Of a DNA stretch of 64,000 nt, positions 3,108-47,876 are shown one piece after another; position 1 is the first letter of the stretch, and each line of letters starts with the position of its first letter. Origin of the DNA: Mycobacterium sp. (GTDB lineage: Bacteria > Actinomycetota > Actinomycetes > Mycobacteriales > Mycobacteriaceae); the NCBI GenBank assembly GCA_049647605.1, contig JBARXZ010000161.1. One strand, 5' to 3'. The notes under the pieces are model-generated. The model saw nothing but the letters and a program-made list of their open reading frames with translations. It did not search any database and had not been told where the DNA came from. A program made the position numbers and the translations under genes.

Positions 3108-3719
3108 ATGACAACCAGAGTGAGCTGTGACCAAGCACCGGGCGGCCAGACTTGTCTCGACTTCGAACAGGAGGTGATGCCTTTGGTGGACGATCTGCTT
3201 CGACGTGCCACGGCCTACACGCAGAATGTGGCCGATGCCGAGGATCTCGTTCAAGAGACGCTACTCAAGGCCTACCGGGGTTTCGAGACATTCGGCCAGG
3301 ACCGCCACCTCAGAGCCTGGCTGCTGCGCATAATGCGGAATGCTTGGATCAACAACTACCGCGCCGGCCAGTGCCGGCCCGCGGAATCACTCATCGGTGA
3401 TCTGGCCGATGGATACCTCGACACCGCATCGCGGTGGTCACTCCATGAGCGCTCCGCCGAACACCTCGCGTTGCGCGGGGTACCTGATCCGGGCATTGTC
3501 GCGGCTCTGTCAGAGCTCCCTGAGAACCTCCGGATGACAATGTATTACATTGCCATTGTTGGGCTTTCCTATCGTGAGGTCTCCGAAGCGATGAAAGTTC
3601 CGCCGGGCACTGTCATGTCGCGGATGCACCGGGGTCGGATTCTGTTGCGTCGATCTCTCGGCACGCACCGGGGCGAGTCCGGCAGCAGCGCACACATCAC
3701 ACCGTGTCCTGCGCACTGA
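3108..3719 (+). CDS. Sigma-70 family (ECF/SigE-like) RNA polymerase sigma factor, paralogue 1
   Basis: Region 2 motif DAEDLVQETLLKAYRGF..RAWLLRIMRNAWINNYR. Region 4 HTH LSYREVSEAMKVPPGTVMSRMHRGR. Confidence 0.85.
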   Translation: MTTRVSCDQAPGGQTCLDFEQEVMPLVDDLLRRATAYTQNVADAEDLVQETLLKAYRGFETFGQDRHLRAWLLRIMRNAWINNYRAGQCRPAESLIGDLADGYLDTASRWSLHERSAEHLALRGVPDPGIVAALSELPENLRMTMYYIAIVGLSYREVSEAMKVPPGTVMSRMHRGRILLRRSLGTHRGESGSSAHITPCPAH

Positions 3720-4470: not shown

Positions 4471-6402
4471 TCACAGGGCGTTGCGCTGGATTTCGGTGAG
4501 CGGGCGCTGCTTGTCTTCGTGGCCCACCGGTGTGGTTCCGGGTCTTGCCTGGTGTACCTTCAACGCGAGCTGTAGAGGAAACCACTCCGAAGCGGCGAGA
4601 ATGTCGAACCCGCTGAGTTGGGTGGCGCGACCAAGCCTCTGGTTCAGGGTATTCCGGTGAACATAGAGACTGCGCGCCGCGGCGGTTTGGCTCCGGAAGT
4701 GAAGGAACGCCGCCAGGGTGTCCAGTAATTCGGTCCCTTTCACCCGGTCGTATTCGGCAATTCTCGCGATGGCAGTCGCATAGCGATCACGAACCGAACT
4801 GGCACCCGAGACCCGGCTCAACAACAGGTGATGGCCGACGTCGTCCAATGTGAACACTCCGTTGGGGCTGGTCAGCGAACTCCCGATCGCCATGGCCTCC
4901 CGTGCTTCGGCCAACGCGTGGTTGAACTCCTCGATCGCCGAGACCGGACGGGAAATGCCGAAGGTGAGGGCGGTACCGGTACTGGAGCGGAGGTGGGAGC
5001 ACACTCGCAACAGCGGCGTGCGGAGGTTATCGACGGCGTCCGCTTCACCGTTCCACGGGACAAGCGCCACGGTTTGATGTGATGTCACCGAAAAGTGGGT
5101 GGTTGCAGGGATTTCGGGCACCTCGGCCATCAGCTTTTCGAGTCGGGGATTGATCTTGACCGAACTGACATCCACACCGGGCAACGGTTGTGCGGCGACG
5201 CTGCCCACGACAAAGATGTAGCCGTAGGCGTTGTCGAGCCCGAGTGCGGACGCTCGTCGTCGTAACTCGTCGGCATTGGTCCGCCCGGCGGACAGATCTC
5301 GTAGGAACCAGGTCAGGCCGTGGCGCTGGGTCAGTTCTTCGGAGACTACCGCCAGTTTCAAGGCCACAGCGGCATGGTTGGCGATCGTCGCCACGGTGGC
5401 GACGTCGCCGCTGGCGAAGGGTGCGTTCCTGAGGCGGTAGCAACCCAGGATTCCGAGTTCGTCGGCACCGACTCGGATTGCGGCCACCGTCACTGAATGG
5501 GAGATCCCAGTCAACACTTGGCCCACTTGTTCACCGGCGGCTCGCCAACTCAACCTGCCGTGTCGGATGTCCTGATCGATGTTGAGCAGGTTGTGCCGAA
5601 CGGACTCGAACACCTCGCGTGACGTTCGATCAGCCGACGGTGCGACGGCCTTGATGTGCATTCGGTCAGCGCCCGAGGGGTCGGTGACGACACAGACGGC
5701 GAAATCGGAATGGGTGGTGTCTCGGGCCAGTTCGGTGGCGCAGTCGAGGGCGCGCGCAATCGGCGCCCCCGAGGCAACTGTTGCGGCCAACTCGGCAACG
5801 CCGTCCGCCACGAGGGTGAGGCGGCGCGTGGCTTCGACGAGCCGAGCAGTCTCGAAGGTGCCGGCGACCAGCGACGCGACGCGTTCGACGAACGGCACCT
5901 CGTCAGGGTCGAAGGGGTGACCATTCGTGGCCCAGACCGTGACACACCCCAGCAGTTCTTCCTTGGAGGACACTATGGGAACGGAGAAAATCGCGCCGTA
6001 CTGTTCTTCCCCGATGCCCGGGTAGGCCAGGAAGTGCGGGTCTTGCGACAACTCGTCATGGATCAGATAGCTCTGGCGTGACGCGGCGACCCACCCCGTC
6101 ACTCCCTCTCCGTAGGCGACGCGAAGGGTGCCGACCTGACTGGCTGCCGGGCTCTCTGTCGCCCCGGCCAGCACCAGCTCGTTGGTTTCTGGATCGAAGA
6201 CATAGAGGTAAACGTCGCGATTTCTGCGACCCCCGGCGATAGCTGCGGCAATCTTCTGGAGCACCGTGGACAGCTCATCGGGGGAGCGAAGCGCGTGTGC
6301 GATCTCCTGCACCGCCCTCAACTCGGCGTCAGCCATCCCGGTGTCGGCCATGGCTAAGGGTAAGCCGCGGCCCCCGTATCGCACAGTGCAAGCCGCAGAC
6401 AT
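4471..6402 (-). CDS. PucR-family transcriptional regulator with GAF-like sensor domains
   Basis: C-terminal PucR HTH (..TAAARSLYVHRNTLNQRLGRATQLSGFDI). N-terminal GAF-like repeats (..YGEGVTGWVAASRQSYLI..). Start uncertain; in-frame ATGs also at 6351 and 6336. Confidence 0.8.
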   Translation of the reverse strand: MSAACTVRYGGRGLPLAMADTGMADAELRAVQEIAHALRSPDELSTVLQKIAAAIAGGRRNRDVYLYVFDPETNELVLAGATESPAASQVGTLRVAYGEGVTGWVAASRQSYLIHDELSQDPHFLAYPGIGEEQYGAIFSVPIVSSKEELLGCVTVWATNGHPFDPDEVPFVERVASLVAGTFETARLVEATRRLTLVADGVAELAATVASGAPIARALDCATELARDTTHSDFAVCVVTDPSGADRMHIKAVAPSADRTSREVFESVRHNLLNIDQDIRHGRLSWRAAGEQVGQVLTGISHSVTVAAIRVGADELGILGCYRLRNAPFASGDVATVATIANHAAVALKLAVVSEELTQRHGLTWFLRDLSAGRTNADELRRRASALGLDNAYGYIFVVGSVAAQPLPGVDVSSVKINPRLEKLMAEVPEIPATTHFSVTSHQTVALVPWNGEADAVDNLRTPLLRVCSHLRSSTGTALTFGISRPVSAIEEFNHALAEAREAMAIGSSLTSPNGVFTLDDVGHHLLLSRVSGASSVRDRYATAIARIAEYDRVKGTELLDTLAAFLHFRSQTAAARSLYVHRNTLNQRLGRATQLSGFDILAASEWFPLQLALKVHQARPGTTPVGHEDKQRPLTEIQRNAL

Positions 6403-6406
6403 GTGG

Positions 6407-7804
6407 CTAGATTCGATCGAAGTACCGCTTCACTTCCCAGTCGCCTACGGCTTCGCGATGACGATCTCGCTCCCAGATACGAGTGGCGAGGTAGTGGTCT
6501 ACGAACGTGTCACCGAAAGCTCTGCGGGCGAGCTGGCTGGTCTCGAATGTGGCAACGGCCTCTGCCAGGGAGAATGGCAGCTCGGTGCCGGGCTTGTCGT
6601 ATGCGTTACCCGCTACCGGTGCCGGGGGTTCGAGCTCGTTCTCGATCCCGTGCAATGCGCTGGCGATACACGCAGACAAGGCCAGGTAGGGGTTTGCGTC
6701 GGCTCCCGGGAGCCGATTCTCCATCCGGCACGACCGCTCGTCGTTTGCGATGACGCGCAGTGCTGTGGTGCGGTTGTCTTCGCCCCATGCTGCCGAGACC
6801 GGTGACCACGATCCTGGAACACGCCGTTTGTAGGAATTCACCGTCGGGCAATAGAGAATGGTGAACTCACGCATCGTCTCCAACTGCCCCGCCAGGATGT
6901 GTCGCATCGTGGGTGATGGACCGTTGTCGTGCCACATCGCGTTTCGCCCCGATTCGCCGGTCCGGACCACGCTTTGGTGGATGTGGGCACTGGAGCCAGC
7001 CGAATCGGTGTTGACCTTGGCCATGAACGAGGCCAGTAGACCGTGCTGCTCGGCGATGCGGCGAACGCCGTTTTTGTAGATCGCTACGCGGTCGGCTGTC
7101 TTGAGGGCGTCATCATGTTCGATATTGATTTCGATCTGACCGGCGCCATACTCGGTGTTCGACGCGAGTATCGGGATGTCGCACGCGCGCATGCCTTCTC
7201 GGATGGCACCGATGACGTCCTCGAGCGCCGCGGCACGGTGCAGACTGAACGTTGCGATCCCCGGCGTCGCTGGCGTGAGGTTGCGGAATCCTTTTGCTGC
7301 TGCCGATTCCGATGTCTCCCGGTAGAGATAGAACTCGATTTCGTAACCGGCCGTGAAGCGCAGACCCATGGCGGCAGCCCGCTCGACCTGCCGTTTGAGG
7401 ACGGTACGAGGCGCGACCTCTACCGGTGTCCCAACGGCATCAGTGACATCACAGAGCACCATTGCCTGACCCGGGTCCCACGGAATCGGCCGGATGGTCG
7501 ACATGTCGGGTCTGAGCACGACGTCGGAATAGCCGGTTTGCCAGCCGGAGAAGCTCAGGCAATCCATCAACGTGTCTTCGATGTCCCAGCCGAAGACGAT
7601 GTTGGGCACCGTCGACCCGTGGCCGGCGATGGATTCGAGGAAGAAGTCGGCGGGAACAAATTTGCCCCGCAGCACGCCGTCGATATCGGGCATCCCGAAC
7701 TGGACCGTACGAATCTGGTGCCGGGCGAACAGTGCGCGTACCTCGGCGACAACAGCCTCGTCGGCGCTCAGGGGGTTGGCAGCGTGCGCCTGTGTATCTG
7801 TCAT
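6407..7804 (-). CDS. Glutamine synthetase family protein (gamma-glutamyl ligase type, GlnA3/GlnA4/PuuA-like)
   Basis: GS catalytic-domain motifs (..SFMAKVNTDSAGSSAHIHQS.., NRTTALRV.., ENRLPGADANPYLA). ATG at 7804 is preceded by GGAAAG. Confidence 0.85.
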   Translation of the reverse strand: MTDTQAHAANPLSADEAVVAEVRALFARHQIRTVQFGMPDIDGVLRGKFVPADFFLESIAGHGSTVPNIVFGWDIEDTLMDCLSFSGWQTGYSDVVLRPDMSTIRPIPWDPGQAMVLCDVTDAVGTPVEVAPRTVLKRQVERAAAMGLRFTAGYEIEFYLYRETSESAAAKGFRNLTPATPGIATFSLHRAAALEDVIGAIREGMRACDIPILASNTEYGAGQIEINIEHDDALKTADRVAIYKNGVRRIAEQHGLLASFMAKVNTDSAGSSAHIHQSVVRTGESGRNAMWHDNGPSPTMRHILAGQLETMREFTILYCPTVNSYKRRVPGSWSPVSAAWGEDNRTTALRVIANDERSCRMENRLPGADANPYLALSACIASALHGIENELEPPAPVAGNAYDKPGTELPFSLAEAVATFETSQLARRAFGDTFVDHYLATRIWERDRHREAVGDWEVKRYFDRI

Positions 7805-8066
7805 CGTGTTAGCTTTCCGGACCAGCCGGCCCATTGCGGCACGGCGCCTCATCCCGTCTCATTGCTGATGAGTCGACCTGCCGACAGCGCCGTAGCCCGC
7901 CGGTGTCTGTCATTTGCCCAACCTAACCGCCCGACAGTCATCAGGCAGCGTGCAGGTTGCCCACATTTTCGTGGCATCCCTGTTCGGCACTGACGGTGCG
8001 CCGTACTTTCGGACAGTGCAAGGCCAGGTGGCGAGGGTCGAAAACCATTCTCTGAGAGGAATCAGC

Positions 8067-8801
8067 GTGTCGAACTGGTCGGATCTGACTCGCGAGGAGG
8101 TCGGTATGGCAGCGCGCTCAGGTGCGGTGGCCGTGTTGCCCATCGGTGCGGTTGAACAACATGGGGATCATCTGCCGACCGGCACCGACGCGTTGTTGGT
8201 CGCGCAAGCAGTCGAAGACGCAGTGGCGCGGACCCGAGATATCGCTTTGCCCGTTCTCGCGTACGGCTGCTCGTTGGGGCATACCGAACACTGGCCCGGC
8301 ACACTGTCACTGAACGTCGCGACGATGACTGCGGTGCTGAGCGACATCGGCCGATGGGTACACGCCTCGGGTTTCCGTAAGCTCGTGGTGCTCAACTCCC
8401 ATGCCACCAACGGACCTCCGTGCCAAAGTGCGCTGCTGACTTTACGGTACGAGTTACCCGCGCTGCGAACGTTGTTCGCTTCGCTCTACGACATCACACC
8501 TGCAGCCAGAGCCGGATATCACGCCGATGCGGAGGACCCCCACGCAAACGAAGCCGAGACATCGATGCTCTTGCACATCGCCCCGGAGCTTGTGCAGGGT
8601 GACCGTGCAGTCGACGAGGTCGATCGGACGGTGGGTCGCGTGCTGACCTACCCGATGCCCGAGGTGACCCTGAGCGGGGTCGTGGGCGCTCCGAGCGAAG
8701 CGAGTGCGGTCGCTGGAGATGCGCTGTTCAGTGCCATCGTTGACGGGATTGCCGACCTGCTTGCCCGCGTTCGAGCTGAAACCGACCCGCTGTCCGAGTA
8801 G
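8067..8801 (+). CDS. Creatininase-family amidohydrolase
   Basis: Motif AVLPIGAVEQHGDHLPTGTD. GTG 8067 is preceded by GAGAGGA. Confidence 0.8.
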   Translation: MSNWSDLTREEVGMAARSGAVAVLPIGAVEQHGDHLPTGTDALLVAQAVEDAVARTRDIALPVLAYGCSLGHTEHWPGTLSLNVATMTAVLSDIGRWVHASGFRKLVVLNSHATNGPPCQSALLTLRYELPALRTLFASLYDITPAARAGYHADAEDPHANEAETSMLLHIAPELVQGDRAVDEVDRTVGRVLTYPMPEVTLSGVVGAPSEASAVAGDALFSAIVDGIADLLARVRAETDPLSE

Positions 8802-8952
8802 CCCGGTACCAGCGCGGTATCGCACGTCCTTGTCTAACAACGCGATCGTCGAGAATCGTCGTGATCGACGGGGCTTGTGACGAACATCGCTCTCCCTCAG
8901 CGATTTTTGGCCAGAACTGAACGTTTTTCCGATCGGCTACGTCGATACATGT

Positions 8953-10647
8953 GTGATCATCGAATACCTTTCGTCGATCGGTGTCCGGCATGTGTTTGGC
9001 GTGGGTGGAGCCAACATCGAGGACCTGTACGACGCCGCGCACTTCCGCGACGACATCACCGCGGTCCTTGCCAAGCACGAGTTCGCCGCTGCCGCTATGG
9101 CTGATGGGTACAGCAGATCCGGTGCCGGGCTCGGGGTGGTGATGGCAACCTCGGGCGGGGCCTCGTTGAACTTGGTGCCGGGCCTGGGCGAGTCCTTGGC
9201 CAGTGGGGTCCCGGTCCTGGCATTGGTCGGTCAACCTCCCAGTGGCCAGGATGGGCACGGAAGCTTTCAGGACACCAGCGGTCGCAACGGTTCTCTGGAC
9301 GCGCATGCGCTCTTCTCGGCGGTGTCGCTGCACTGTGAGCGGGTGATCGATCCGGCTGACACCTTTGGTGCGCTGTCCCGGGCGGTTGCTGCCGCTCGTA
9401 CCGGCGGCCCGGCGGTTGTCCTGCTCCCCAAAGACATCCAGCAGAGCCGCCTGCGGCTCGATGACATGCTTGTCGACAGATCCGGCCACGCCACGGTCGA
9501 TCACGGTGCAGATCTCACGTTGCTCGCCGGAGAACTGGCCCGCGCTGTCGGCCGGGTGACGATCATCGCCGGTGAACAAGTGGGTCGAGACGACGCACGC
9601 GAGGACCTGGAGCGGCTTCGCGTTGCACTCGGCGCCGAACTCGCCACGGTTCCTGACGCCAAGGACGTCAGCAGATCCGCGACGCTCGGGGTCACTGGGG
9701 TCATGGGGCATCTGGGTGTGGCAGACGCGGTGCGACGAAGTCAGGTGTGCCTAGTGATCGGCACCCGGCTGGGGGCAACCGCGCGAGCAGGCCTCGATGA
9801 TGCGCTGGCAAGCGTGACCACCCTGTCGATAGGTGCCGAGGCGCCTTACATTTCCTGCCGCCACGCTCGATCGACCGATTTGCGGGTGTCGCTGAGCACA
9901 CTGACGGCTGCCCTGAGTGCCGCAGGTTCGGACCCACTGCCTGAGTTGTGGTCGTCCGTGCATCGCGGACCGGGCATCCGCTTGCCTGAGCTACGGCCGC
10001 CCGCGCATCGGGGGCCGGGCATCCGCTATCGGGAGGCGATGGCTGTCCTGGATCAGATGCTGCCCGACGACGTCGACATCGTTGTCGACGCGGGCAATAC
10101 CGGAGCCTCGGCAATCCACTATCTACCTGCCCGGCCGGACGGTCGATTTGTCGTCGCGCTGGGGATGGGTGGGATGGGGTACAGCTTCGGGGCTGCCATC
10201 GGCGTAGCGTTCGCCAGAGGCAGGAGAACCGTGGTGATCGCCGGCGACGGCTCGTTCTTCATGCACGGCATGGAGATTCATACAGCGTGTGAGTACCGGC
10301 TTCCGATCACCTTCGTGCTGTTCAACAACAACGCGCATGCCATGTGTGTCACCCGTGAACAGATCTTCTACGCCGATCAATACAGCTACAACAGGTTTCG
10401 GCCCAGCCGTCTCGGTGGTGGGCTCGCGGCGATGTTCCCCGGTCTGTCCGCCTTGGACATCTCTGAGATCAACCACCTGCCCGTCGCGCTCGAGGCTGCC
10501 TTGGATGTCGACGGACCTGCCGTGATCAGCGTCGAATGCTCGGCCGACGAGATCCCACCGTTCGCCCCGTTTCTGACCGAAACGAAACCCGCTGCACCTC
10601 AACGACAGAACAAGGAGAACCAGCACCATGTCACTGCCGGCGCTTGA
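8953..10647 (+). CDS. Thiamine-diphosphate-dependent enzyme (acetolactate-synthase-like carboligase/decarboxylase family)
   Basis: N-terminal Pyr domain (GVRHVFGVGGANIEDL.., MATSGGASLNLVPGL). C-terminal ThDP motif GDGSFFMHG..x..NNNAHAM. Confidence 0.85.
   Translation: MIIEYLSSIGVRHVFGVGGANIEDLYDAAHFRDDITAVLAKHEFAAAAMADGYSRSGAGLGVVMATSGGASLNLVPGLGESLASGVPVLALVGQPPSGQDGHGSFQDTSGRNGSLDAHALFSAVSLHCERVIDPADTFGALSRAVAAARTGGPAVVLLPKDIQQSRLRLDDMLVDRSGHATVDHGADLTLLAGELARAVGRVTIIAGEQVGRDDAREDLERLRVALGAELATVPDAKDVSRSATLGVTGVMGHLGVADAVRRSQVCLVIGTRLGATARAGLDDALASVTTLSIGAEAPYISCRHARSTDLRVSLSTLTAALSAAGSDPLPELWSSVHRGPGIRLPELRPPAHRGPGIRYREAMAVLDQMLPDDVDIVVDAGNTGASAIHYLPARPDGRFVVALGMGGMGYSFGAAIGVAFARGRRTVVIAGDGSFFMHGMEIHTACEYRLPITFVLFNNNAHAMCVTREQIFYADQYSYNRFRPSRLGGGLAAMFPGLSALDISEINHLPVALEAALDVDGPAVISVECSADEIPPFAPFLTETKPAAPQRQNKENQHHVTAGA
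9961..10027 (+). repeat. In-frame 22-nt direct repeat (20/22 identical), copies 45 nt apart, inside the ThDP enzyme gene
   Basis: catcgcggaccgggcatccgct (9961-9982) versus catcgggggccgggcatccgct (10006-10027). This encodes HRGPGIR twice. Confidence 0.7.
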
Positions 10648-11287
10648 CGATATCGTCCGACCCCTGGACGGGGTGACCAGAATCGAGACCAGCCCGCGAG
10701 AGCAGGCGACCCCGATCATCATGGAGATGATGCGGTCGGTGTACCCACACGAACAGGTGTACGGCGACTATTGCACCGTCAACGACTACATCGACTGCCC
10801 GCCCGATGAGCTCTTCGAATATCTATCGGACACCAGAAGTCTGGAGGAGTGGACCTACAGTCTGCGTGGATTCACCCCGACGGAGCAGCCGGGCCTCTGG
10901 CTGGCATATGACAGGCTGGGCACCGAGACGGAGATCTACACCCGCACGGTGGCCAACGCCGCTGCCCGCACCGTGGACTACCACTGTGCCTGGGATCAGG
11001 GCACCCATCTCTGGATGATCTACCTGATGCGCGTCGTCGACGCGCAGACGGTGCTCAACAAACCGGGCTCGGTGGTGTTGTGGACCAACTGCCGCCACCC
11101 GTTCTACGACCAAAACCCGTACCCGGAGACCGCGCCTGCCGGGCGGCCCGTGTGGGTCGGCGACTTCTGGGACATGTTCGGACCCGGGCATCTGTTGGAG
11201 TTGCAGAACCTCAAGGCCATTGCCGAGTACCGCCACCGCACCGGACTGCCGATCACGCCGGACTGGATGAAGAAGGATCCCGAATGA
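10628..11287 (+). CDS. Hypothetical protein, possibly SRPBCC/START-like fold
   Basis: RBS AAGGAG before ATG 10628. Overlaps the upstream stop by 20 nt. Its TGA overlaps the next ATG (ATGA at 11284). The fold assignment is only a guess from the sequence pattern. Confidence 0.6.
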   Translation: MSLPALDDIVRPLDGVTRIETSPREQATPIIMEMMRSVYPHEQVYGDYCTVNDYIDCPPDELFEYLSDTRSLEEWTYSLRGFTPTEQPGLWLAYDRLGTETEIYTRTVANAAARTVDYHCAWDQGTHLWMIYLMRVVDAQTVLNKPGSVVLWTNCRHPFYDQNPYPETAPAGRPVWVGDFWDMFGPGHLLELQNLKAIAEYRHRTGLPITPDWMKKDPE

Positions 11288-12297
11288 CCGCCGTCAGCCT
11301 CATGGACGTATCCACCTACCTACCCGCAAACAGGGTTCCCGCCCAGTACTACGCCGATTTCGCTGGAACCGACGACCTCCGGGAGAACCTGATGTTTCGG
11401 GCGCCGGAGTATCGCCATCACGTCGAGAAGGACTGGACCAACGTCGACATGGTGGAGCAGGCCGCCGCGGGTCTCCTGGGCCGCCACGGCGCAGACGTGT
11501 TGGCTGACGTAGACGTGTTACTCACGCATTCTCAGCTTCCGGATCTGCCCATCGTGGGTGCCGGCGGCGAAGTCGCCCACCGCCTTGGCATGCACCCCGA
11601 GTGGATCATCGATGTGCACAACGGCGGGTGCGCGGCATTTGTGTTGATGCTCAAACTTGCCCGGCAGATGCTTGCCGCCGGGGCAGGACGGACTGCACTG
11701 ATCGCTGTGGCGCAAACCTGTGCGGGGAAGGTGTTCGATCAATCGGAGGTTCGCAAGAAAGCGCAGTCCTCGGTGCCCGGCGACGGCGCGGCCGTGGGAT
11801 TGCTCAGAGTGTCCGACGAGTCGCCGATCCTGGATGTGGAGTGCCGATACTACGGTGAGTACGCGGGGGACATGACGCTGGCATCCGACCCGCCGCGGCA
11901 ATGGTGGCAGGCCGGCGCGGGCCAGGGGTACGTCAGTTTCAACGAAGCCAAGATCACCAAGGTGCTGTCGCGGGGAAACCGTTTGGTTCCCGAGGTCGCG
12001 CTGGCGGTCTGCGATCGCATCGGCGTCAAATCCAAAGACCTGGATCTGCTGGTGACCAACCAGCCCAACCGAGTCTTCCTGCGGAACTGGAATGAGGCGC
12101 TGGAACTTCCACGAGAGCGCCACCGTGACACGTTCCATGAATGTGGCAATCTCTTCGGCGTTGGCATCCCGGTGAACTTCGAGGCCGCTATCAACGACGG
12201 CCAGATCAAAGCCGGTGACACCGTGATGATGGCCGGATTCGCTCACGCCGGTGACTTCGCTGGGGCTGCCGCGATCCGTTGGGGTGGCCGACCATGA
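11284..12297 (+). CDS. KASIII (FabH)-like 3-oxoacyl-ACP synthase family protein, atypical active-site motif
   Basis: Thiolase-fold motifs HNGGCAAF (Cys codon 11629-11631) and ECGNLFGVGIP. The usual HQAN box reads TNQPN (12052-12066). Confidence 0.8.
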   Translation: MTAVSLMDVSTYLPANRVPAQYYADFAGTDDLRENLMFRAPEYRHHVEKDWTNVDMVEQAAAGLLGRHGADVLADVDVLLTHSQLPDLPIVGAGGEVAHRLGMHPEWIIDVHNGGCAAFVLMLKLARQMLAAGAGRTALIAVAQTCAGKVFDQSEVRKKAQSSVPGDGAAVGLLRVSDESPILDVECRYYGEYAGDMTLASDPPRQWWQAGAGQGYVSFNEAKITKVLSRGNRLVPEVALAVCDRIGVKSKDLDLLVTNQPNRVFLRNWNEALELPRERHRDTFHECGNLFGVGIPVNFEAAINDGQIKAGDTVMMAGFAHAGDFAGAAAIRWGGRP

Positions 12298-13325
12298 CGG
12301 GAGCGCTACACGCCATCAGCGACGCCGTTCCATCTCCTCAGCCGGTAGACCCGATGGCGTTGTCGCTCAACGAGAATCCGTACCCTCCACTTCCGTCGGT
12401 GCGCGCCGCCATCGTCGAGAGCATCGGTGCAGTCAACCGCTACCCGGAATTCCTTCCCGAACGGTTGCGTCGGGTCATCGCAGGACACGTCGGGGTCCGC
12501 AACGAGCAGGTGGTGATCGGCGCCGGTGCCACCGGTGTCGCCATGCAGGTACTGAACGCGGTGACCACCCCAGGTGACCGGATAGTCTTGGCGGAACCGA
12601 CATTTGATGGATATCCGATTCTCGCGCGGATGGCCCACCTGACATCTGTCGCGGTGCCGCTTGACCGTTGCGGTCACCATGACCTGGACATGATGGCCGA
12701 CGCCGCCACTCAGGCCAGGGTGCTGGTGTTGTGCCGGCCGCACAATCCGACTGGCACCATGGAGTCAGCCGCCAGCGTCCACCAATTCCTGTCGCGGGTG
12801 CCGAGAGACACCATTGTGTTGCTCGACGAAGCCTATATCGAGTTCGCTGCTCCGCAGCGCCGGCTGGAGACCCGGTACCTGATCAAGAAGTTCCCGAACG
12901 TCGTTGTCGTACGGACATTTTCGAAAGCCTACGGACTGGCGGGGATCCGCACCGGCTACGGCTTTTGCGGACTCGATCTGGCCCGGACCTTGTGGACGAT
13001 GCAGATGCCGTTCGGCGCGGCGATCACCAGTCTGGCGGCGGTGACAGCCTCGTACGAAGCCGAGAACCAACTGCAACGACGGGTTCGGGCGATTGCGGAT
13101 GAGCGGAGCTACCTGCGCTCTCGTCTGAGCGCACTCGGTGTCGTCAGCAGCGACTCACATGCCAACTTCGTCTATCTGCCCCAGCGCGGCCGGCCGTGGT
13201 CGGACGCTTTTGTCGACACGGATCTGCGCATCCGGTCCTACGCTGACGGTGGGGTCCGTATCACTGTCGGCGAACGCACTTCCAGCCGTGCGGTTCTACG
13301 GGCGATCACTGCTTCGTCGCGCTGA
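12294..13325 (+). CDS. Class I/II PLP-dependent aminotransferase (histidinol-phosphate aminotransferase-like)
   Basis: LSLNENPYPPLPSV, NRYPEF, HNPTG, DEAYIEF and TFSKAYGLAGIRTGY (PLP lysine motif). ATGA overlap with the upstream gene. Confidence 0.85.
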   Translation: MTGALHAISDAVPSPQPVDPMALSLNENPYPPLPSVRAAIVESIGAVNRYPEFLPERLRRVIAGHVGVRNEQVVIGAGATGVAMQVLNAVTTPGDRIVLAEPTFDGYPILARMAHLTSVAVPLDRCGHHDLDMMADAATQARVLVLCRPHNPTGTMESAASVHQFLSRVPRDTIVLLDEAYIEFAAPQRRLETRYLIKKFPNVVVVRTFSKAYGLAGIRTGYGFCGLDLARTLWTMQMPFGAAITSLAAVTASYEAENQLQRRVRAIADERSYLRSRLSALGVVSSDSHANFVYLPQRGRPWSDAFVDTDLRIRSYADGGVRITVGERTSSRAVLRAITASSR

Positions 13326-13337
13326 GTCCGCCATGCC

Positions 13338-13392
13338 ATCCCGCATCCGGTGGATTCCGGCGGACGGGCTACTTGTCCTCCGGATGCGGGAT
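13338..13392. terminator. Inverted repeat between convergent genes (13-bp stem, 29-nt loop)
   Basis: ATCCCGCATCCGG (13338-13350) pairs perfectly with CCGGATGCGGGAT (13380-13392). The large loop makes terminator function uncertain. Confidence 0.3.
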
Positions 13393-13456
13393 AGAGCATC
13401 GCCTCCTTCGCGGGAAGAGAGCCGCTGGACAAAGTCGGGGCGCCGACGTTTGTTGT

Positions 13457-14614
13457 CTAGCGCAGAACAGCTTCGATGATCGACAGGTGACTCGCCGTCG
13501 GAATCGCCCGGTTCACCCGGAATCCTGCTGTGTCCAGGAGCGTGTCGTACTGCGGCCGGGTGCGTTCATGCCCGCCGGCGAAGATCAGCATGTCGAGATC
13601 GAGGAACTTCGACAGGTGCGGCTTGTTGTTGGACGGTAGTACGGCTTCGATCAACAGAAGTGTCGCCGTGGGCGCCATGGTTTCCCGGATACGGCCCAGG
13701 ATCATCCGGGCATGGTCGTCATCCCAGTCATGGATGATGTGTTTGAGAACATAGAGATCCCCGCTCGGCGGCACTGTGTCGAAGAACGAACCGACTTCGA
13801 CATCACTCCGGTGACCGACCCCTGCTGCAACAAGATGCTCGCGGCTCTTCGCTTCCGTTGAGGGGATGTCGAAGAGCACACCGCGCGCTTCGGGCGCCGC
13901 TTTCAGTATCGCGGAAAGGAGCCGGCCATTTCCGCCGCCGACGTCCACTATCGAGCGTGCTCGCGAAAAGTCGTACGCGGCCAGTATCGGGGGGATGACC
14001 AGCGAACTGGTGCAGGACATCGCGTCATTGAATACCTTGGCCACCTCGGGCTCGTGACCGAGGCATTCGAACAACGTCATGCCATAGCTTGTTTCGATGC
14101 TGGACCGCCCCGTGCGTACAGAATCAGTGAGCCGACCCCAGTGTTCCCAGTACAGCGGGTGGCTGAGCAACAGGAGAAGCGGTCGCACCGACATCGGCGT
14201 GTCACTGCGCAGCGTCTGGGCGGTTGCGGTCAACTCGAACGTTCCGTCGGTCCTATGGACGAATATCGACTGCATGGCCAGTGCGCGCAGCAGTCGATGA
14301 GTTGCCGCGGGGTCGGCGCCGACACGGGCGGCAATCACCTCGGCGGTAAGTGGACCGTCTGAGAGAACGTCGGCAATTCCCAGCCTCGCGGCCGCATAGA
14401 TGGTCTGTGCGGTGGCGACTCCACCCATTGCCGCGTCGAGAATGCCGACTGGCGGCGGCACCATCTTGAAACTTGCTTTCCGGAGCCCGTTGCGGAGTGT
14501 TTCGACAGATCGCGCCAACCATACGGGCGGCACTCGCCCCGCAACCCCGGCCCCGAACTCGCGATGTGATGAAGGGGCGGAGTGGGGTCGAGAACGACTG
14601 TTGGGAAATGGCAT
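13457..14614 (-). CDS. Class I SAM-dependent O-methyltransferase (plant/bacterial small-molecule OMT family with dimerisation domain)
   Basis: SAM motif VDVGGGNGRLL and the tail LKHIIHDWDDD. ATG 14614 is preceded by GGAGGA at 7-nt spacing. Confidence 0.8.
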   Translation of the reverse strand: MPFPNSRSRPHSAPSSHREFGAGVAGRVPPVWLARSVETLRNGLRKASFKMVPPPVGILDAAMGGVATAQTIYAAARLGIADVLSDGPLTAEVIAARVGADPAATHRLLRALAMQSIFVHRTDGTFELTATAQTLRSDTPMSVRPLLLLLSHPLYWEHWGRLTDSVRTGRSSIETSYGMTLFECLGHEPEVAKVFNDAMSCTSSLVIPPILAAYDFSRARSIVDVGGGNGRLLSAILKAAPEARGVLFDIPSTEAKSREHLVAAGVGHRSDVEVGSFFDTVPPSGDLYVLKHIIHDWDDDHARMILGRIRETMAPTATLLLIEAVLPSNNKPHLSKFLDLDMLIFAGGHERTRPQYDTLLDTAGFRVNRAIPTASHLSIIEAVLR

Positions 14615-14728
14615 TCGTACATCCTCCGCTGGCGCTATGGTCTGAACTGCTGGCATAGGAGATAACACGCGCCACCTTGATTCCCTTCGCCACATGCTGA
14701 CGTCGCCACGACTGAAGGTTCGGGAAAC

Positions 14729-16990
14729 CTACCCGCGATTGCCGGTGGGTATTGCAGCGATGTCACCGCATTCGTTGAACCCGAACCTGTCATGGAGCCG
14801 AACCAAGATTCGAGGCGCCCACCAATTCCATGGGCCGAGCGCATGAATGAAGGCGGGCACCAGAATCATCCGCACCAAGGTGGCGTCGACGAGCACGGCC
14901 AACGTGAGGCCAACACCGAACATCCGCATGAAGGACACCTCCGCGGTGATCAACGCTGCGAACGAAATCGACATCACCAACGCTGCTGCAGTGATCACCC
15001 GGGCAGTGCGAGCCAATCCAACAGCAACGCTGTCGTCGTTGTCGTCACGGGTGCGACCGCTCTTGAGCCAGTGTTCGCGGATTCGCGACACGAGAAACAC
15101 CTCGTAGTCCATCGACAGGCCGAACGCGATGCAGAACAACAGCACCGGCACGTTGGCGACGAGGGTGCCGGTTGGCGTAGTGCCGAGGGCCCCCAGATGG
15201 CCATCCTGGAAGATCCACACCAGAGCCCCGAATGTGGCTGTCAGTGAGAGCGCATTCATCACAAGTGCTTTCAGAGGAAGCACGACGCTTCCGGTCAGCA
15301 TGAACAACAATGCGAACGTGACCATCCCGATGAACCCCAGCACCATGGGCAATCGTGACGTGATCGCTTTGACGCTGTCTCGGTTCACCCGCGCCACACC
15401 GGACATCTCGACATCACGACCGCCGGGGCCCGGCACGGCCTCGAGCCTGTCCAACTGGGCCTCGGAGGCATCGGAGAACAACGGAGCCGTGCTGCTCACG
15501 GTGAGGAAGACGCTGCCTCCAGCGGCACCCGTCGGTGCCGCTGGAGGACCCGACCAGTGCCCCCCGACAAACGTCCCAGACGGGGCTGCAACCATGGAAA
15601 CATCTGGCACCTGAGATAGTGCGACAGCGTAGCTATCAATGATCGTCGCCGGCAGCCCGTTGGCGTCGGGGACGACGACGGTCACCGAAGTGTCGGTATT
15701 GGCGGCGAACGAGGAGCGCAGATCGTTACCGACTTCGTGGGCGGACGCCGACGGTGGAAGCACCCGTTCGTCCGGGAAGCCCCATCTCACGCCGACAAAC
15801 GGCATTCCCAGCAGCACCAGCAACGTGGCTACGGCCAGACCGAGCGGAATCGCGCGGCGCATCACGAATCGCGCTGACCGGTGCCAGAACTGTTCATCGA
15901 GAGCCGTGGTCGCGGGCGCTGGCCGACGCAGCATTCGCCGCGCAAACATGCGTACGTCGAGCGAATCGACCCGGGTGCCCAGCAGCACCAGGGCTGCCGG
16001 TGTGACCACAATCGCCGCACCAGCAGAGAATGCCACCGTGGCGAGGCCGGCAAACGCGAACGATTTCAGAACGTACATCGGGAACAGCACCAAGGCGGCC
16101 ATCGACAACGCCACTGTTGTCGCGGAGAACACCACGGTGCGACCGGCGGTGATCATGGTCTGAACGAGCGCGCGCTCCGTGGTTCCACCATCGGCCAACT
16201 CGTCACGATACCTGCTGATGATCAGCAATGTGTAGTCGATTGCCAGTGCCAAACCCATTGCCGCGGAGAGGTTCAGCGCAAGTACCGAGACGTCGGTAAC
16301 GACAGTGATCAGTCGCAGTACCGACATCGATCCGACGATGGCCAGTGCGCCCACCACCATCGGCACAGCCGCGGCCAGCAGCCCGCCGAATATCCAGACC
16401 AGCACCAGAAAGCTCAATGGCACAGCGATGACTTCCATCAGCAACAGGTCACTCTGAGTCTGCTGATTGATCTGCGCGTACGTCATCGCTGAACCGCCGG
16501 CACGTACCTGGACGCCTTGGTATTCGGGAACAATGTCATCCGCAACGGTGTCGGACAGCGTTTGCGCATATCTCGGCGCGTCAGTCACGCCCCCGGCCAG
16601 CTCGGCGACAATCAATCCCGTGCCACCGTCCCTGCTGAACAGGTTGACCGCGGACGCCGGAGGGGACGTCCACGGCGACATCACGCTGGTCACATTTGGA
16701 TCGTTCTCCAGGAGGTCGACGATGTCCCGACCCGCGTTGCGAGCCACCGTGCCATCTGCACCGTTGTCCACGGTGAGGGTGAACATCAGTTGCATGTCGC
16801 TTCGGGAGAACTTGTCCTGGAGTAGCTGCTCAGCCCGCGCCGACTCCGAATTGGGATCTTGAAAGCCGCCTGAGGAGAGACTTTTCGCGACGGGCAGGCC
16901 AAAGATGGCCGCACCGATCATCACCGCAACCGAGAGGGCGACGACGCGCCGGGGAGCGGCGAGCGCCAGCAGCGCGATCCGGTGTAGCAC
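14729..16990 (-). CDS. MMPL-family (RND superfamily) transporter, short about 750-aa type
   Basis: Two blocks of multiple hydrophobic helices. MMPL motifs (..GLALAIDYTLLIISRY.., ..FGLSMDYEVFLVSRIRE..). Confidence 0.85.
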   Translation of the reverse strand: MLHRIALLALAAPRRVVALSVAVMIGAAIFGLPVAKSLSSGGFQDPNSESARAEQLLQDKFSRSDMQLMFTLTVDNGADGTVARNAGRDIVDLLENDPNVTSVMSPWTSPPASAVNLFSRDGGTGLIVAELAGGVTDAPRYAQTLSDTVADDIVPEYQGVQVRAGGSAMTYAQINQQTQSDLLLMEVIAVPLSFLVLVWIFGGLLAAAVPMVVGALAIVGSMSVLRLITVVTDVSVLALNLSAAMGLALAIDYTLLIISRYRDELADGGTTERALVQTMITAGRTVVFSATTVALSMAALVLFPMYVLKSFAFAGLATVAFSAGAAIVVTPAALVLLGTRVDSLDVRMFARRMLRRPAPATTALDEQFWHRSARFVMRRAIPLGLAVATLLVLLGMPFVGVRWGFPDERVLPPSASAHEVGNDLRSSFAANTDTSVTVVVPDANGLPATIIDSYAVALSQVPDVSMVAAPSGTFVGGHWSGPPAAPTGAAGGSVFLTVSSTAPLFSDASEAQLDRLEAVPGPGGRDVEMSGVARVNRDSVKAITSRLPMVLGFIGMVTFALLFMLTGSVVLPLKALVMNALSLTATFGALVWIFQDGHLGALGTTPTGTLVANVPVLLFCIAFGLSMDYEVFLVSRIREHWLKSGRTRDDNDDSVAVGLARTARVITAAALVMSISFAALITAEVSFMRMFGVGLTLAVLVDATLVRMILVPAFIHALGPWNWWAPRILVRLHDRFGFNECGDIAAIPTGNRG

Positions 16991-17290
16991 GATCCATCCC
17001 CTCCGCCCCTCGAGAACACCACAAAAAGCAGCGTGTAAGCGGTCCCGACCGAGTGGCGGCGGGGAGCAGCCTCGCCGCCGTCACTTAGGACAACAAGGCG
17101 AGGACCAGAAAGCTTCGGTTCCACAGCGGCGATGTGGGTGTCGCCATGTGATCACCAGCTGATCTGATTCAACAGGAGTTGGCACGCGCTGCCGACGTCA
17201 TCGCGATCCCTGGAGGAGGAAGTGCGGAATTGTCTGTCTCCGTGATTGTTACAGAACAAGACGATGACGGAGACTGCCGAACGCCATTGC

Positions 17291-17749
17291 TCAGCAGTCT
17301 CGGCCTCCTCTCAGCCGACCATTGCCCTGACACTCGTCCATGGTGCCGACGAACCGATAGCCACGGCCGCGAATCGTTCGGATGTAACGTTGCGATTCGC
17401 CGTCGTCGCCGAGGACTCGGCGCGCCATTTTGATGCGGCTGGTGAGAGCGGCCTCGCCCACGAAGCGACCTCCCCAGACACTGTCGAAGAGTTCAGTCTT
17501 GGTGACCAGGCGGTGGTGGTTGATCACCAAATGTGTCATGACATCGAATACCTGGGGCTCCATCGGAATCACGACCCCGTCGCTGCGCAGTTCGTAGCGC
17601 GCCACATCGAGGACAAACTCATCAAAATGCCACGCGCCCAGGTCAGTTGTGGACATTCCGGCCAAGAGCACAGTCACGTTGTTCCTTTCGAAGAGCTCGC
17701 TGTCGAGCCGGTCGACCGGTACGACGATCGCGGCCGCCGAAAGGTTCAT
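17291..17749 (-). CDS. Stand-alone OmpR/PhoB-type winged-helix DNA-binding protein (SARP/EmbR N-terminus-like)
   Basis: FDEFVLDVARYELRSDG..PMEPQVFDVMTHLV..VTKTELFDSVWG....LTSRIKMARRVLGDD..IRTIRGRGYRF. No receiver domain. Start uncertain. Confidence 0.65.
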   Translation of the reverse strand: MNLSAAAIVVPVDRLDSELFERNNVTVLLAGMSTTDLGAWHFDEFVLDVARYELRSDGVVIPMEPQVFDVMTHLVINHHRLVTKTELFDSVWGGRFVGEAALTSRIKMARRVLGDDGESQRYIRTIRGRGYRFVGTMDECQGNGRLRGGRDC

Positions 17750-19426: not shown

Positions 19427-20431
19427 TCAGAAGATGCCACTGTAGGCATTGAGGGCCTGCTGGCCGCCCAGATGCGCGTAGAGAACCTTCGAATGGGGTT
19501 CGATCTGCCCAGACTGAACCAGGTCCACCAGGCCGGCCATGGACTTACCTTCGTAGACGGGATCGAGGATGACTCCTTCGAGGCGTCCGACCAACTTGAT
19601 CGCATCGATTGTTGATTCGACCGGTACGCCGTAGCGATCGCCCGCCCACCCTTCGAGAACTGTCATCTCGTCATCACGAAGGTCACGGCCGAGTCCGATG
19701 AGCTCTGCAGTGCTGCGGGCGATGCGCGCAACCTGTGCGTGGGTCTTCGTCAAGGTCGCCGAAGCGTCGATGCCGATGACGCGGCGTGGCCGGTCCTGGC
19801 CGGCGAAACCGGCGATCATCCCTGCCTGAGTCGATCCTGTCACTGTGCAGACCACAATGGTGTCGAAGAAGACCCCGAGTGTTTGTTCCTGTTGCTGGAC
19901 TTCGTATGCCCAGTTGGCGAAGCCGAGGCCGCCCAACCGGTGATCGGATGCACCTGCAGGGATGGCGTATGGGATACCACCTGCACGCTCGACATCCTCG
20001 ATGGCCTTCTGCCAGCTGTCTTTGAACTCGATGCCGAAACCGGAGGGATCGAGACGGACGTCGGCGCCCATGATCCGTGACAGAAGGATATTGCCGACTT
20101 TGTCGTTGACCGAATCGGGCCAGTCAACCCATTTCTCCTGGACAAGGACCGCCTTGAGGCCCAGGTGGGCGGCGACGGCAGCCACCTGACGGGTGTGGTT
20201 GGACTGAACACCCCCGATCGAGACCAGGGTGTCGGCTCCCAGCTCGAGCGCTTCGGGGATCAAGTACTCCAGCTTTCGGGTCTTGTTGCCGCCATACGCG
20301 AGTCCGGAGTTCACATCCTCGCGTTTGGCCCAGATGTCAGCGCCACCGAGAAAGTCACTCAGCCTGGGAAGCGGATGGACCGGGCTCGGGCCGAAGGTCA
20401 GCGGGTAGCGCTCGAAATCTGAAATAGCCAT
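19427..20431 (-). CDS. acdS: 1-aminocyclopropane-1-carboxylate deaminase
   Basis: [35 protein letters not shown] (PLP Lys), [20 protein letters not shown] and AHLGG. RBS CCAGGAG before ATG 20431. Confidence 0.8.
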
Positions 20432-20532
20432 GGGTTGTCTCCTGGAGTACGGACATAGCCGCGGTAGCTGAGTACGACTCGCAGAGCGATCCGCAGCGGA
20501 TGGGATGGGTCTACGGTCAGCAACATCCAACG

Positions 20533-20546
20533 CGCAATATATTGCG
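20533..20546. promoter_or_regulatory. Perfect 14-bp AT-rich palindrome CGCAATATATTGCG (site 3 of 4) in the acdS / MmyB-like regulator intergenic region
   Basis: Self-complementary when checked base by base. On the acdS strand a TTGACA (complement of 20563-20568) lies 16 nt upstream of the 14-bp palindrome. Confidence 0.55.
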
Positions 20547-20717
20547 ATGCGCAAAGGTTTCTTGTCAACCGTCGATGGGCGCTTTCAACCACTTGACTCT
20601 CCCGCTGGGGGAGGTGGCACCGTGTCGCTATGACACTTGACAAGGACGTCGGTCCTGGTATCCCCATCTGGGGAACCGAAAGTGAATCAGATTCGGTCCA
20701 CATACGTGTAATACGGT

Positions 20718-21545
20718 GTGCCATCAGCAGCCGATATCGGCCCTCTTGCGGAGTTCCTGAGAAGTCACCGTGAGCGACTTTCGCCGGAGCTGGTTGGTAT
20801 CCAAACACGGGGAGTTCGCCGTGTGCCTGGACTGCGGCGCGAGGAGGTGGCCATTCGGGCCGGAATCAGTATCGAGTACTACACCCGTCTTGAACAGGGT
20901 CGCGAGCGCAATCCTTCTGGAGCCGTGTGCGATGCGCTCGCGGACGCGCTCACTCTAGATCGCTATGAAGCCGGGCACCTGCATGCGCTTGCCAGTCCTC
21001 GCAAGTCAAATGTCGATGTCCGTTCGCCCAGACCGGAAGTCCCCGAGGGATGTCGGGTACTCGTACGGACGCTCGGAACACCGGCAATCATCCAGACCCG
21101 GTACACGGATGTACTCGTCTCAAATCCCATGGCGGAAGCGCTGTCGCCGGCCTTACACCGCGGTGTGAACCGTATTCGGTCTCTGTTCATCGACCCATCG
21201 GAGCGGGCCATGCATCTCGACTGGAACCGGGCAACGGCCAATTGCGTCGCACAGCTGCGCTTTGCGGTTGGTGGGGAGCTCACGATGTCGCCTGCCCGGG
21301 AACTGATCGCCGATCTGTTGCAGCGTAGCGCCACCTTCCGGGGACTATGGTCACGCCACGAGGTCAACCACGCTCCCCTCAGTCCGATCCGTCTCCGCCA
21401 CCCAACCCTGGGGCGCCTCAAGCTGTTCCGAGAGAAGCTCATCCTCGCGGGCACCGACGATCTCGCCATGGTGGTCTTCCACGCCGAACCCTCATCGCAT
21501 TCCTGGTCGGCGCTGCAGCGGTTGGCTCAGCATTCGGCTATCTAG
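20718..21545 (+). CDS. MmyB-like XRE-family helix-turn-helix transcriptional regulator
   Basis: LAEFLRSHRERLSPE..GLRREEVAIRAGISIEYYTRLEQGRERNPS, followed by an MmyB-type C-terminal ligand domain. Confidence 0.8.
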   Translation: MPSAADIGPLAEFLRSHRERLSPELVGIQTRGVRRVPGLRREEVAIRAGISIEYYTRLEQGRERNPSGAVCDALADALTLDRYEAGHLHALASPRKSNVDVRSPRPEVPEGCRVLVRTLGTPAIIQTRYTDVLVSNPMAEALSPALHRGVNRIRSLFIDPSERAMHLDWNRATANCVAQLRFAVGGELTMSPARELIADLLQRSATFRGLWSRHEVNHAPLSPIRLRHPTLGRLKLFREKLILAGTDDLAMVVFHAEPSSHSWSALQRLAQHSAI

Positions 21546-21721: not shown

Positions 21722-22378
21722 ATGACGTCCATATCGAGTTTTGATCAAGTACGGGCCGGCCAGGTCCGTCCCGACTTCGAGCGGGAGGTGATGCCTTTGT
21801 TGGCAGACCTTCGTAGGCGTGCCTTGGCGTACACCCACAATGCGGCCGACGCGGAGGACCTTGTTCAAGAAACGCTGCTGAAGGCCTACCGGGCATTCGC
21901 TACGCTCGGCCGCGACCGTTACCTCAAAGCCTGGCTACTGCGCATCATGCGAAACACCTGGATCAACAACTATCGGGCGGGCCTGTGCCGGCCGACTGAG
22001 GCACTTGTCGGGGATCTCACCGATGGCAATCTCGATATCGTGTCGCAGTGGTCGCGCCACGAGTGCTCGGCTGAGCACATCGCCTTGCGTGGAATGGCAG
22101 ATCCGGGAACCGTCGCGGCGCTGTCAAGCCTCCCTGAGAAGGTCCTCCTCACTGTGTATTACATCGCGATTGTTGGATTGTCGTATCGCGAGGTATCCAC
22201 AGCGATGAACGTTCCGCCAGGTACTGTGATGTCCCGGATGCATCGCGGTCGGCTCCTACTGCGTCGCTCACTCGCGGCGCACCGGGGCGGGCTCGTCACG
22301 ATTGGGTGCGTTACCGAGAACGCGACGGCTGAAGGTACTGAGGGGGCTGCCCGCTGCAGAGGCAACTCATTGGCCTGA
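21722..22378 (+). CDS. Sigma-70 family (ECF/SigE-like) sigma factor, paralogue 2
   Basis: Collinear with 3108-3719 across regions 2 and 4 (DAEDLVQETLLKAYRAF.., LSYREVSTAMNVPPGTVMSRMHRGR). Many synonymous differences. Confidence 0.85.
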   Translation: MTSISSFDQVRAGQVRPDFEREVMPLLADLRRRALAYTHNAADAEDLVQETLLKAYRAFATLGRDRYLKAWLLRIMRNTWINNYRAGLCRPTEALVGDLTDGNLDIVSQWSRHECSAEHIALRGMADPGTVAALSSLPEKVLLTVYYIAIVGLSYREVSTAMNVPPGTVMSRMHRGRLLLRRSLAAHRGGLVTIGCVTENATAEGTEGAARCRGNSLA

Positions 22379-24773: not shown

Positions 24774-24830
24774 GCCATTGTGCAAATACGCAGGAGCTGT
24801 CGCAAGCTCTGGAAACAAGTGAGGACGAAC

Positions 24831-26435: not shown

Positions 26436-26501
26436 CCGAACTGGCGGCGGGTTGCTGCACCCTGGCCGAACTTGGCGGACATCTATCCGACGGAAGGCAA
26501 T

Positions 26502-42949: not shown

Positions 42950-42968
42950 AGCTGCTCCGCCACTGTAG

Positions 42969-44836
<1,868 letters not shown>

Positions 44837-45010
44837 GGCACCATCGTGGCATGGACCAGTTCGTCCGGACCGGCCCTTCGGCTGTCGGTTCCCGCCGAGA
44901 TTCTGCGGACTTCGCTTGATCATGTGGCTGGCACCATTCGGGATGTCCGGAGGCTTCACTTCTTGAGGACCAAGAACTTCCTGGAGAGTTGCGGCAGCGA
45001 CCTGCCGTAC

Positions 45011-47865: not shown

Positions 47866-47876
47866 AGTCCCACACC

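Follow-up and report, generated by a model that had tools for sequence, protein, structure and literature searches.

INTRODUCTION

The bacterial carbazoles carquinostatin, neocarazostatin, carbazomycin and carazostatin are antioxidant and antimicrobial alkaloids of Streptomyces. We analyzed a 64,000-nt stretch of Mycobacterium sp. DNA (contig JBARXZ010000161.1; the whole stretch is here called the window), where a first-pass annotation had flagged positions 6407 to 17749 as a candidate uncharacterised small-molecule biosynthetic locus. That reading is supported in part, and now with a specific identity: four genes at 8953–13325 probably constitute one translationally coupled operon encoding a bacterial carbazole-forming enzyme set.

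In the Streptomyces pathway, the aminotransferase CqsB7/NzsD turns tryptophan into indole-3-pyruvate, the thiamine diphosphate (ThDP) enzyme CqsB3/NzsH joins indole-3-pyruvate to pyruvate, and CqsB2/NzsI closes ring A (PMC7466098, Kobayashi and Kuzuyama). CqsB2 acts through the catalytic residues Glu105, Tyr144, Tyr172, His206 and Glu209 and its catechol product undergoes oxidation to an ortho-quinone; the machinery for mono-oxygenated carbazoles is described as still unknown (PMC7466098). Only in the clusters cqs and nzs do a dedicated acyl carrier protein (ACP) and a beta-ketoacyl-ACP synthase III (KASIII) of the classical kind supply 3-hydroxybutyryl-ACP; the published carbazomycin (cbz) cluster, like the window's operon, has no ACP, and it carries an O-methyltransferase (OMT) (PMC11610953). 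Lipocarbazoles of Tsukamurella pseudospumae are antioxidative 3-oxygenated carbazoles, according to the accounts of Schneider et al. 2009 given in PMC7466098 and PMC11387468.

The window encodes the same four enzyme families as cqs and nzs (CqsB1/NzsJ, CqsB2/NzsI, CqsB3/NzsH and CqsB7/NzsD) and would follow the same logic, from tryptophan through indole-3-pyruvate, acyloin formation and acylation to ring closure. Unlike cqs and nzs, it has no ACP or second KASIII (CqsB5/B6), no prenyltransferase and no P450, and it adds an exporter and an OMT beside the core; we found no PP-binding or second KASIII open reading frame (ORF) in the window's 1–24 kb interval, and none among the flank-gene families compared in related loci. 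The closest overall gene content is that of the cbz cluster and of a cbz-like cluster (L085), which share with the window a core without a dedicated ACP/KASIII pair and an OMT of family PF00891. The window differs from cbz in having an MmpL exporter and a His-to-Asn change in the KAS enzyme, and no SDR/NmrA reductase or FAD/BBE oxidase gene lies beside its core. Tsukamurella, the lipocarbazole producer, belongs to the same order as the window's host, the Mycobacteriales. As their name implies, lipocarbazoles carry a long lipid side chain, and such a chain would fit a cluster without a short-chain ACP and with an MmpL-type lipid exporter.

RESULTS AND DISCUSSION

The four core enzymes resemble those of carbazole biosynthesis

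We compared the window's proteins directly with those of two reference clusters taken from public genomes, the cqs cluster (L084) and the carbazomycin-like cluster. All four core proteins have their best characterized match in the carbazole counterpart, CqsB3, CqsB2, CqsB1 and CqsB7, or in the carbazomycin-like cluster. The ThDP enzyme is 34–36% identical over its full length to CqsB3 and to the CbzD-like protein (E-values of 1e-72 to 1e-82; 259 bits), and it has both the Glu that activates the cofactor (KHE) and the GDGSF...NN motif for ThDP; its closest solved relatives are BbmA (1e-52) and CsmA (1e-47), with acetolactate synthases reaching only 1e-31. The cyclase matches PDB entry 6ipv, the CqsB2 carbazole synthase of carquinostatin biosynthesis (1.4e-47), and is 41% identical to CqsB2. 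The KASIII-like enzyme scores 139 bits against CqsB1 (28% identity), with scores of 63 bits for CqsB5, a classical KASIII, and of 68 bits for FabH structures, and on these alignment scores it is assigned to the CqsB1/NzsJ lineage and not to fatty-acid FabH. The aminotransferase is 42–44% identical to CqsB7 and to the CbzB-like protein (1e-80 to 1e-85; 250 bits), while its best solved relative is 4r2n, a putative phenylalanine aminotransferase (182 bits).

These comparisons match the set to a characterized cluster, which the first-pass annotation had been unable to do, and they support the view of the ThDP, START-like, KASIII-like and aminotransferase genes as a biosynthetic operon. The label START-like holds at the level of the fold only; by its 6ipv match, the family is that of the CqsB2/NzsI carbazole synthases. 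A xenocyloin-type acylated acyloin pathway, consisting of a ThDP enzyme and a KASIII acyltransferase, was also considered and was dropped because the START-like protein is a CqsB2 homologue.

At the positions of the five CqsB2 catalytic residues, E105, Y144, Y172, H206 and E209, the window cyclase has D, Y, Y, H and E, keeping four of the five. Those four residues are invariant across 96 aligned family members, while the change of E105 to Asp is found in the window and throughout the Mycobacteriales clade. Among the large groups of the cyclase family, which is small (167 clusters at 50% identity), the Mycobacteriales branch diverges most. In other bacteria, a KASIII-like enzyme and a carbazole-synthase-like cyclase are fused into proteins of 550–590 aa (P0140, P0235 and P0240), an arrangement consistent with a published proposal that both enzymes need to work jointly on an unstable intermediate (PMC7466098).

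The gene junctions confirm the translational coupling that had been described for the last four genes (Table 1). The cyclase ATG at 10628 lies 20 nt before the end of the ThDP gene (stop codon 10645–10647) and is preceded by an AAGGAGA ribosome-binding site, while ATGA overlaps join the cyclase to the KASIII-like gene at 11284 and the KASIII-like gene to the aminotransferase gene at 12294. All ten ORFs named in the first-pass annotation were recovered with the strands and domains given there, and the gap of about 150 nt between the creatininase and ThDP genes measures 151 nt. The creatininase start at GTG 8067 yields a 244-aa protein that is identical in extent to the entry of this contig in the protein database. 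Where the aminotransferase and OMT genes converge, a near-perfect 13-bp inverted repeat lies in a region that folds at −64.5 kcal/mol (z-score −3.1; none of 200 shuffled sequences folded equally well) and is a possible bidirectional terminator. Simple promoter and terminator scans returned nothing above chance.

Table 1. Positions of the core genes, their neighbours and associated elements in the window
Feature	Position	Strand	Basis or remark
PucR/GAF regulator	4471-6402	-	ORF and domains
Glutamine synthetase (GS)-like gamma-glutamyl ligase	6407-7852	-	ORF and domains
Creatininase family protein	8067-8801	+	start GTG 8067, not 7914; module span ends at 8801; 244 aa; co-oriented with the ThDP gene
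Degenerate TGAAC-N17-CGT match	8918-8942	+	11 nt upstream of the ThDP start codon
ThDP enzyme	8953-10647	+	all three TPP_enzyme domains
Carbazole-synthase-like cyclase, CqsB2/NzsI family	10628-11287	+	Bet v1/SRPBCC fold; 219 aa; no Pfam match
KASIII-like condensing enzyme, CqsB1/NzsJ homologue	11284-12297	+	Cys-Asn-Asn replacing Cys-His-Asn
Pyridoxal phosphate (PLP) aminotransferase class I/II, CqsB7/NzsD homologue	12294-13325	+	Aminotran_1_2 domain
Hairpin between the convergent aminotransferase and OMT genes	13332-13400	.	inverted repeat and folding
Phenolic small-molecule OMT, probable tailoring enzyme	13457-14695	-	PF00891 and dimerisation domain; maximal ORF, internal start possible
MmpL (RND) transporter, probable exporter	14729-16990	-	MMPL domain; upstream of and co-directional with the OMT gene
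Stand-alone OmpR/PhoB-type winged-helix protein, cluster membership uncertain	17291-17749	-	Trans_reg_C

The core is conserved across mycobacteria and in Rhodococcus

We scanned one genome per species for relatives of the cyclase and compared the best 80 loci together with those of Rhodococcus jostii and Mycolicibacterium tokaiense. The related loci number 83 and come from Mycobacterium, Mycolicibacterium, uncultured (metagenome-assembled) genomes and Rhodococcus. Cyclase relatives are encoded in at least 578 species-level genomes. Wherever the genes were recovered, the order ThDP–cyclase–KAS–aminotransferase was constant. For the cyclase, identity is 80–87% in the mycobacterial loci examined, and Rhodococcus has 74%. 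The window's core is closest to that of M. tokaiense (78% weighted identity).

The usual setting of the core, in about 60 of 70 related loci, is among a run of SecY, adenylate kinase and methionine aminopeptidase genes (secY-adk-mapA), a pair of genes for an extracytoplasmic function (ECF) sigma factor and a zf-HC2 anti-sigma factor, and a MarR gene, followed by mmsB-fadE9-mmsA. A link to sulfur metabolism was prompted by the Rhodococcus neighbourhood and was rejected because it is not conserved in the mycobacterial loci.

The active site of the KASIII-like enzyme is altered throughout this group. Cys116 and Asn289 are invariant in the alignment, while the column of the catalytic His is occupied by Asn259, leaving no Cys-His-Asn triad. 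The corresponding TNQPN motif (VSNQPN in L078) is present in every related locus where the region was recovered, Rhodococcus included, whereas HQPN or HQAN is kept in CqsB1, CqsB5, the CbzF-like protein and the distant KAS-cyclase fusions, and FabH has the catalytic His as well. The substitution of Asn for His across a whole clade would be a natural experiment on the KASIII catalytic triad. The window's operon probably represents the established carbazole enzymology in a Mycobacteriales form that is distinct, widely conserved and changed in its KASIII active site. If this reading is true, at least several hundred species genomes carry that form, and those of them that were identified belong to mycobacteria, Rhodococcus and Gordonia; the form would make an unrecognised conserved small molecule in clinically and environmentally important organisms, and the operon would be a candidate gene cluster for the Tsukamurella lipocarbazoles.

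Proposed pathway, tailoring and export

The steps that we infer for the window are modelled on the characterized Streptomyces pathway. The aminotransferase would convert L-tryptophan into indole-3-pyruvate. The KASIII-like enzyme would take up an acyl group on its active-site cysteine and carry out a decarboxylative condensation with an indolyl alpha-hydroxy-beta-keto acid; the CqsB2-like cyclase would close ring A to yield a 1-alkyl-2-methyl-carbazole catechol or quinone. Because the cluster encodes neither an ACP nor a second KASIII, the acyl donor would be drawn from primary metabolism, which has also been proposed for carbazomycin. For a mycobacterium, a long fatty acyl-CoA or acyl-AcpM could serve as this donor, leading to a lipocarbazole-like product. 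A long-chain donor is a reasonable guess, since an ACP is absent, an MmpL exporter is present and lipocarbazoles occur in Tsukamurella. A ring hydroxyl is the most likely target of the adjoining OMT, and export of the lipophilic product is the most likely task of the MmpL transporter. The product is likely to be an O-methylated, possibly lipophilic carbazole exported by MmpL.

In this window, the carbazole-type core is joined by a probable tailoring and export pair. The best solved relatives of the OMT are the natural-product OMT-fold enzymes AlpH, CalO6, MmcR and DnrK, and the transporter matches the MmpL3 model over residues 16–740, without the C-terminal domain. In M. tokaiense (L002), where the remaining flanks are different, a 74% identical OMT gene is convergent to the core, and a 65% identical MmpL gene overlaps the OMT gene by 4 nt. 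On a metagenome contig (L089), a 72% identical OMT adjoins a 72% identical aminotransferase; this contig was the one close relative found in a metagenome scan with the OMT, the other 79 being distant paralogues that are uninformative on linkage. The suggestion that the convergent OMT/MmpL pair is part of the pathway is plausible in view of this retention.

Other lineages combine the core with different partners. We found a P450 and a catechol-type OMT beside the core in two loci (L007 and L009), a catechol-type OMT alone in two others (L050 and L072), and an FAD monooxygenase, a class I methyltransferase, a DUF4389 protein and an ABC exporter in species resembling the M. avium complex. Recurrent genes for methylation and export fit a cyclase whose characterized homologue releases a catechol.

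Alternative readings

Several observations weigh against the assignment to carbazole formation. The gene order of the window differs from that of the Streptomyces clusters, which in cqs is KAS-cyclase-ThDP...aminotransferase, and identities to the characterized enzymes are modest (28% for KAS, 34–36% for the ThDP enzyme and 41% for the cyclase). Because the His of the Cys-His-Asn triad is missing, the chemistry of the KASIII-like enzyme could differ from that of CqsB1. The window OMT aligns with the cbz-like OMT at 28% identity over 214 residues, a partial length, and by this comparison is not an orthologue of the carbazomycin OMT. Occurrences of the OMT/MmpL pair are few, the OMT being beside the core in the window, M. 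tokaiense and L089 and the MmpL in the window and M. tokaiense only. A literature search, with incomplete coverage, returned no paper describing the operon in mycobacteria, no carbazole from Mycobacterium and no gene cluster assigned to the lipocarbazoles.

One alternative, which we regard as unlikely, is that the four enzymes, as homologues of the carbazole set, make a different scaffold. In one variant, the KASIII-like enzyme could, through the exchange of His for Asn, be an acyltransferase in place of a decarboxylative carbon-carbon condensing enzyme; in another, the aminotransferase and ThDP enzyme could start from another aromatic amino acid, with the cyclase closing a different ring. The fixation of TNQPN in the clade, where CqsB1, the CbzF-like protein and the distant fusions have HQPN, speaks for such a change, as do the Asp at cyclase position E105 throughout the clade, identities of only 28–42% to characterized enzymes, the annotation of the nearest solved aminotransferase as a phenylalanine enzyme and the absence of a described machinery for mono-oxygenated carbazoles (PMC7466098). 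However, the invariance of four of the five cyclase catalytic residues, together with the high cyclase identities among mycobacteria and in Rhodococcus, argues for a conserved and demanding reaction. The aminotransferase is nearer to CqsB7 than to the phenylalanine enzyme (250 versus 182 bits), catechol-type and phenolic OMTs recur beside the core as expected for a catechol-forming cyclase, and an Asn in place of the His could still give a hydrogen bond to the oxyanion. We retain carbazole formation as the preferred reading of the operon.

The first-pass annotation had pictured one large new pathway across 6407–17749 that included the creatininase, the GS-like ligase and the PucR/GAF regulator. 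The genes are adjacent, and the creatininase gene is on the same strand as the ThDP gene and ends shortly upstream of it. However, homologues of the creatininase, GS-like ligase and PucR/GAF regulator were found in none of the 83 core loci, and the closest relative, M. tokaiense, has DUF2277 and DUF1802 genes upstream of its core instead. In three other mycobacterial genomes (L086, L087 and L088), PucR, GS-like ligase and creatininase recur at 60–85% identity as a unit of their own, with unrelated flanks and without carbazole genes; an amino-acid permease and a PhyH dioxygenase accompany them in L087 and L088. Because these genes recur without the core and are absent from core loci, the creatininase, GS-like ligase and PucR genes (4471–8801) are, on comparative grounds, a separate module and a chance neighbour of the carbazole-type operon. 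For this part of the block, such a result is one that the first-pass annotation had itself listed as refuting its proposal. The single large pathway is accordingly very improbable, and the cluster should be trimmed by the left third of the flagged interval. The composition of the separate module suggests the uptake and breakdown of some amine or lactam.

It is just as improbable that the operon is catabolic, breaking down tryptophan or indole-3-pyruvate and building nothing: its very wide conservation, usually among secY-adk-mapA and the valine-catabolism genes mmsB-fadE9-mmsA, and cyclase identities unusually high for secondary metabolism would fit, but biosynthetic carbazole enzymes are specifically the nearest relatives of all four proteins, the partners conserved with the core are methyltransferases, oxygenases and exporters and include no ring-cleavage or beta-oxidation enzymes, and in the literature searched the CqsB2 family has no described catabolic role, only carbazole ring formation (PMC7466098).

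The operon is a predicted sigma-L target in related genomes

In most related genomes, the core is directly downstream of an ECF sigma gene, which matches model NF007227 above its cutoff, and of the zf-HC2 anti-sigma gene, and the same pair is upstream of the core in Rhodococcus. We take NF007227 to be a SigL-family model, and the neighbourhood of secY-adk-mapA, sigma and anti-sigma genes is presumably that of sigL-rslA in M. tuberculosis. A TGAAC[CT]-N16-TCGTGT motif is present ahead of the ThDP gene in 68 of 73 loci, Rhodococcus included, and ahead of the ECF sigma gene itself in 64 of 67; measured from the aligned starts of these two genes, it lies about 15–145 nt upstream across L004–L083. 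The −10 region reads CGTG in 57 of 66 homologous sites. This family motif matches the experimentally defined sigma-L −10 element, CGTGTCAG, of which the G at −11 is the strongest determinant (PMC6372665). For a member of the sigma-L regulon, TGAACC at −35 and CGTGTCA(G) at −10 would be expected. Across the family, the carbazole-type operon is thereby predicted to be a target of a SigL-type sigma factor.

The listed sigma-L regulon of M. tuberculosis (sigL-rslA, mpt53, pks10-pks7 and Rv1139c-Rv1138c) contains no such operon, and a literature search of incomplete coverage returned no link between carbazoles and sigma-L. Judging by its sigL locus, we presume that M. tuberculosis has lost the operon. 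If the link is true, sigma-L gains a concrete conserved target pathway, and the connection between promoter and operon in related genomes is open to existing sigL and rslA genetics. The window alone is of moderate interest, and would be of more if the family-wide link between sigma-L and carbazoles holds experimentally.

In the window, the operon is not beside a sigL-type sigma gene, and its upstream site at 8918–8942, TGAACG...CGTCGATA, has a −10 region of CGTC without the G at −11. We scored sites with a flank-aware position-weight matrix that excludes the spacer positions, and this site falls far below all family sites. Exact TGAAC-N17-CGT matches number 3 in the window, compared to 2.5 expected by chance; a second one, upstream of the winged-helix gene, is also without the G at −11 and scores below every family site. 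Sigma-L control of the window's own operon was considered and is not claimed, in view of the chance-level matches, the missing G and the low matrix scores. Judged by these features, the match at 8918–8942 is probably not a working sigma-L promoter.

It is possible, if rather doubtful, that the operon is a copy, moved to a new location, of a carbazole-type pathway ancestral to, and near-universal in, non-tuberculous mycobacteria and relatives such as Rhodococcus, where it would be a conserved SigL/RslA output with an antioxidant, membrane-associated, lipocarbazole-like product.

The stand-alone winged-helix protein (152-aa ORF), which had been called SARP-like, loses that label: the search found no BTAD domain and no domain other than Trans_reg_C, a DNA-binding domain of the OmpR/PhoB type. 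The in-frame GTG at 17677, with an AAAGGA ribosome-binding site upstream, is the likelier start of its gene. Homologues were found in none of the 83 related core loci; the protein is a possible regulator of the window operon.

Other promoter-like sites and sigma genes occur elsewhere in the window. The best sigma-L-like match, GGTGAAC-N17-CGTGTC at 42212–42243 (+), is antisense inside a fused rmlC-rmlD gene (41507–42949, −) and could be a chance match or an antisense promoter. Two ECF sigma genes that flank the region, at 3108–3719 (+) and 21722–22378 (+), have similar domain matches; the best NCBIfam match of both is a SigH-type model, below its cutoff, and they are clearly not of the sigL type. 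The second of them follows a gene for an MmyB-like regulator (20718–21545), itself divergent to a PLP-dependent (PALP) enzyme gene (19427–20554), and a TGAAT-N17-CGTGTA site is present just upstream of the MmyB-like gene.

Other loci in the window

Positions 47766–63977 hold a set resembling the Pfa-type polyunsaturated-fatty-acid synthases, with a FabD-like protein, a 2055-aa protein of KS-AT-ACP-KR-DH composition and a 2109-aa protein that has three FabA-like dehydratase domains along with KS domains. Next to follow is the window's second MMPL transporter gene, which is convergent (61788–63977), and the whole looks like a separate locus for lipid biosynthesis and export. Genes for dTDP-rhamnose synthesis, encoding a nucleotidyltransferase, a 4,6-dehydratase and a fused epimerase-reductase, are located at 41507–44959 (−). 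Co-oriented genes for a catechol dioxygenase, a GMC oxidoreductase and an alpha/beta hydrolase at 23892–27260 (+) look like a block for the degradation of aromatic compounds.

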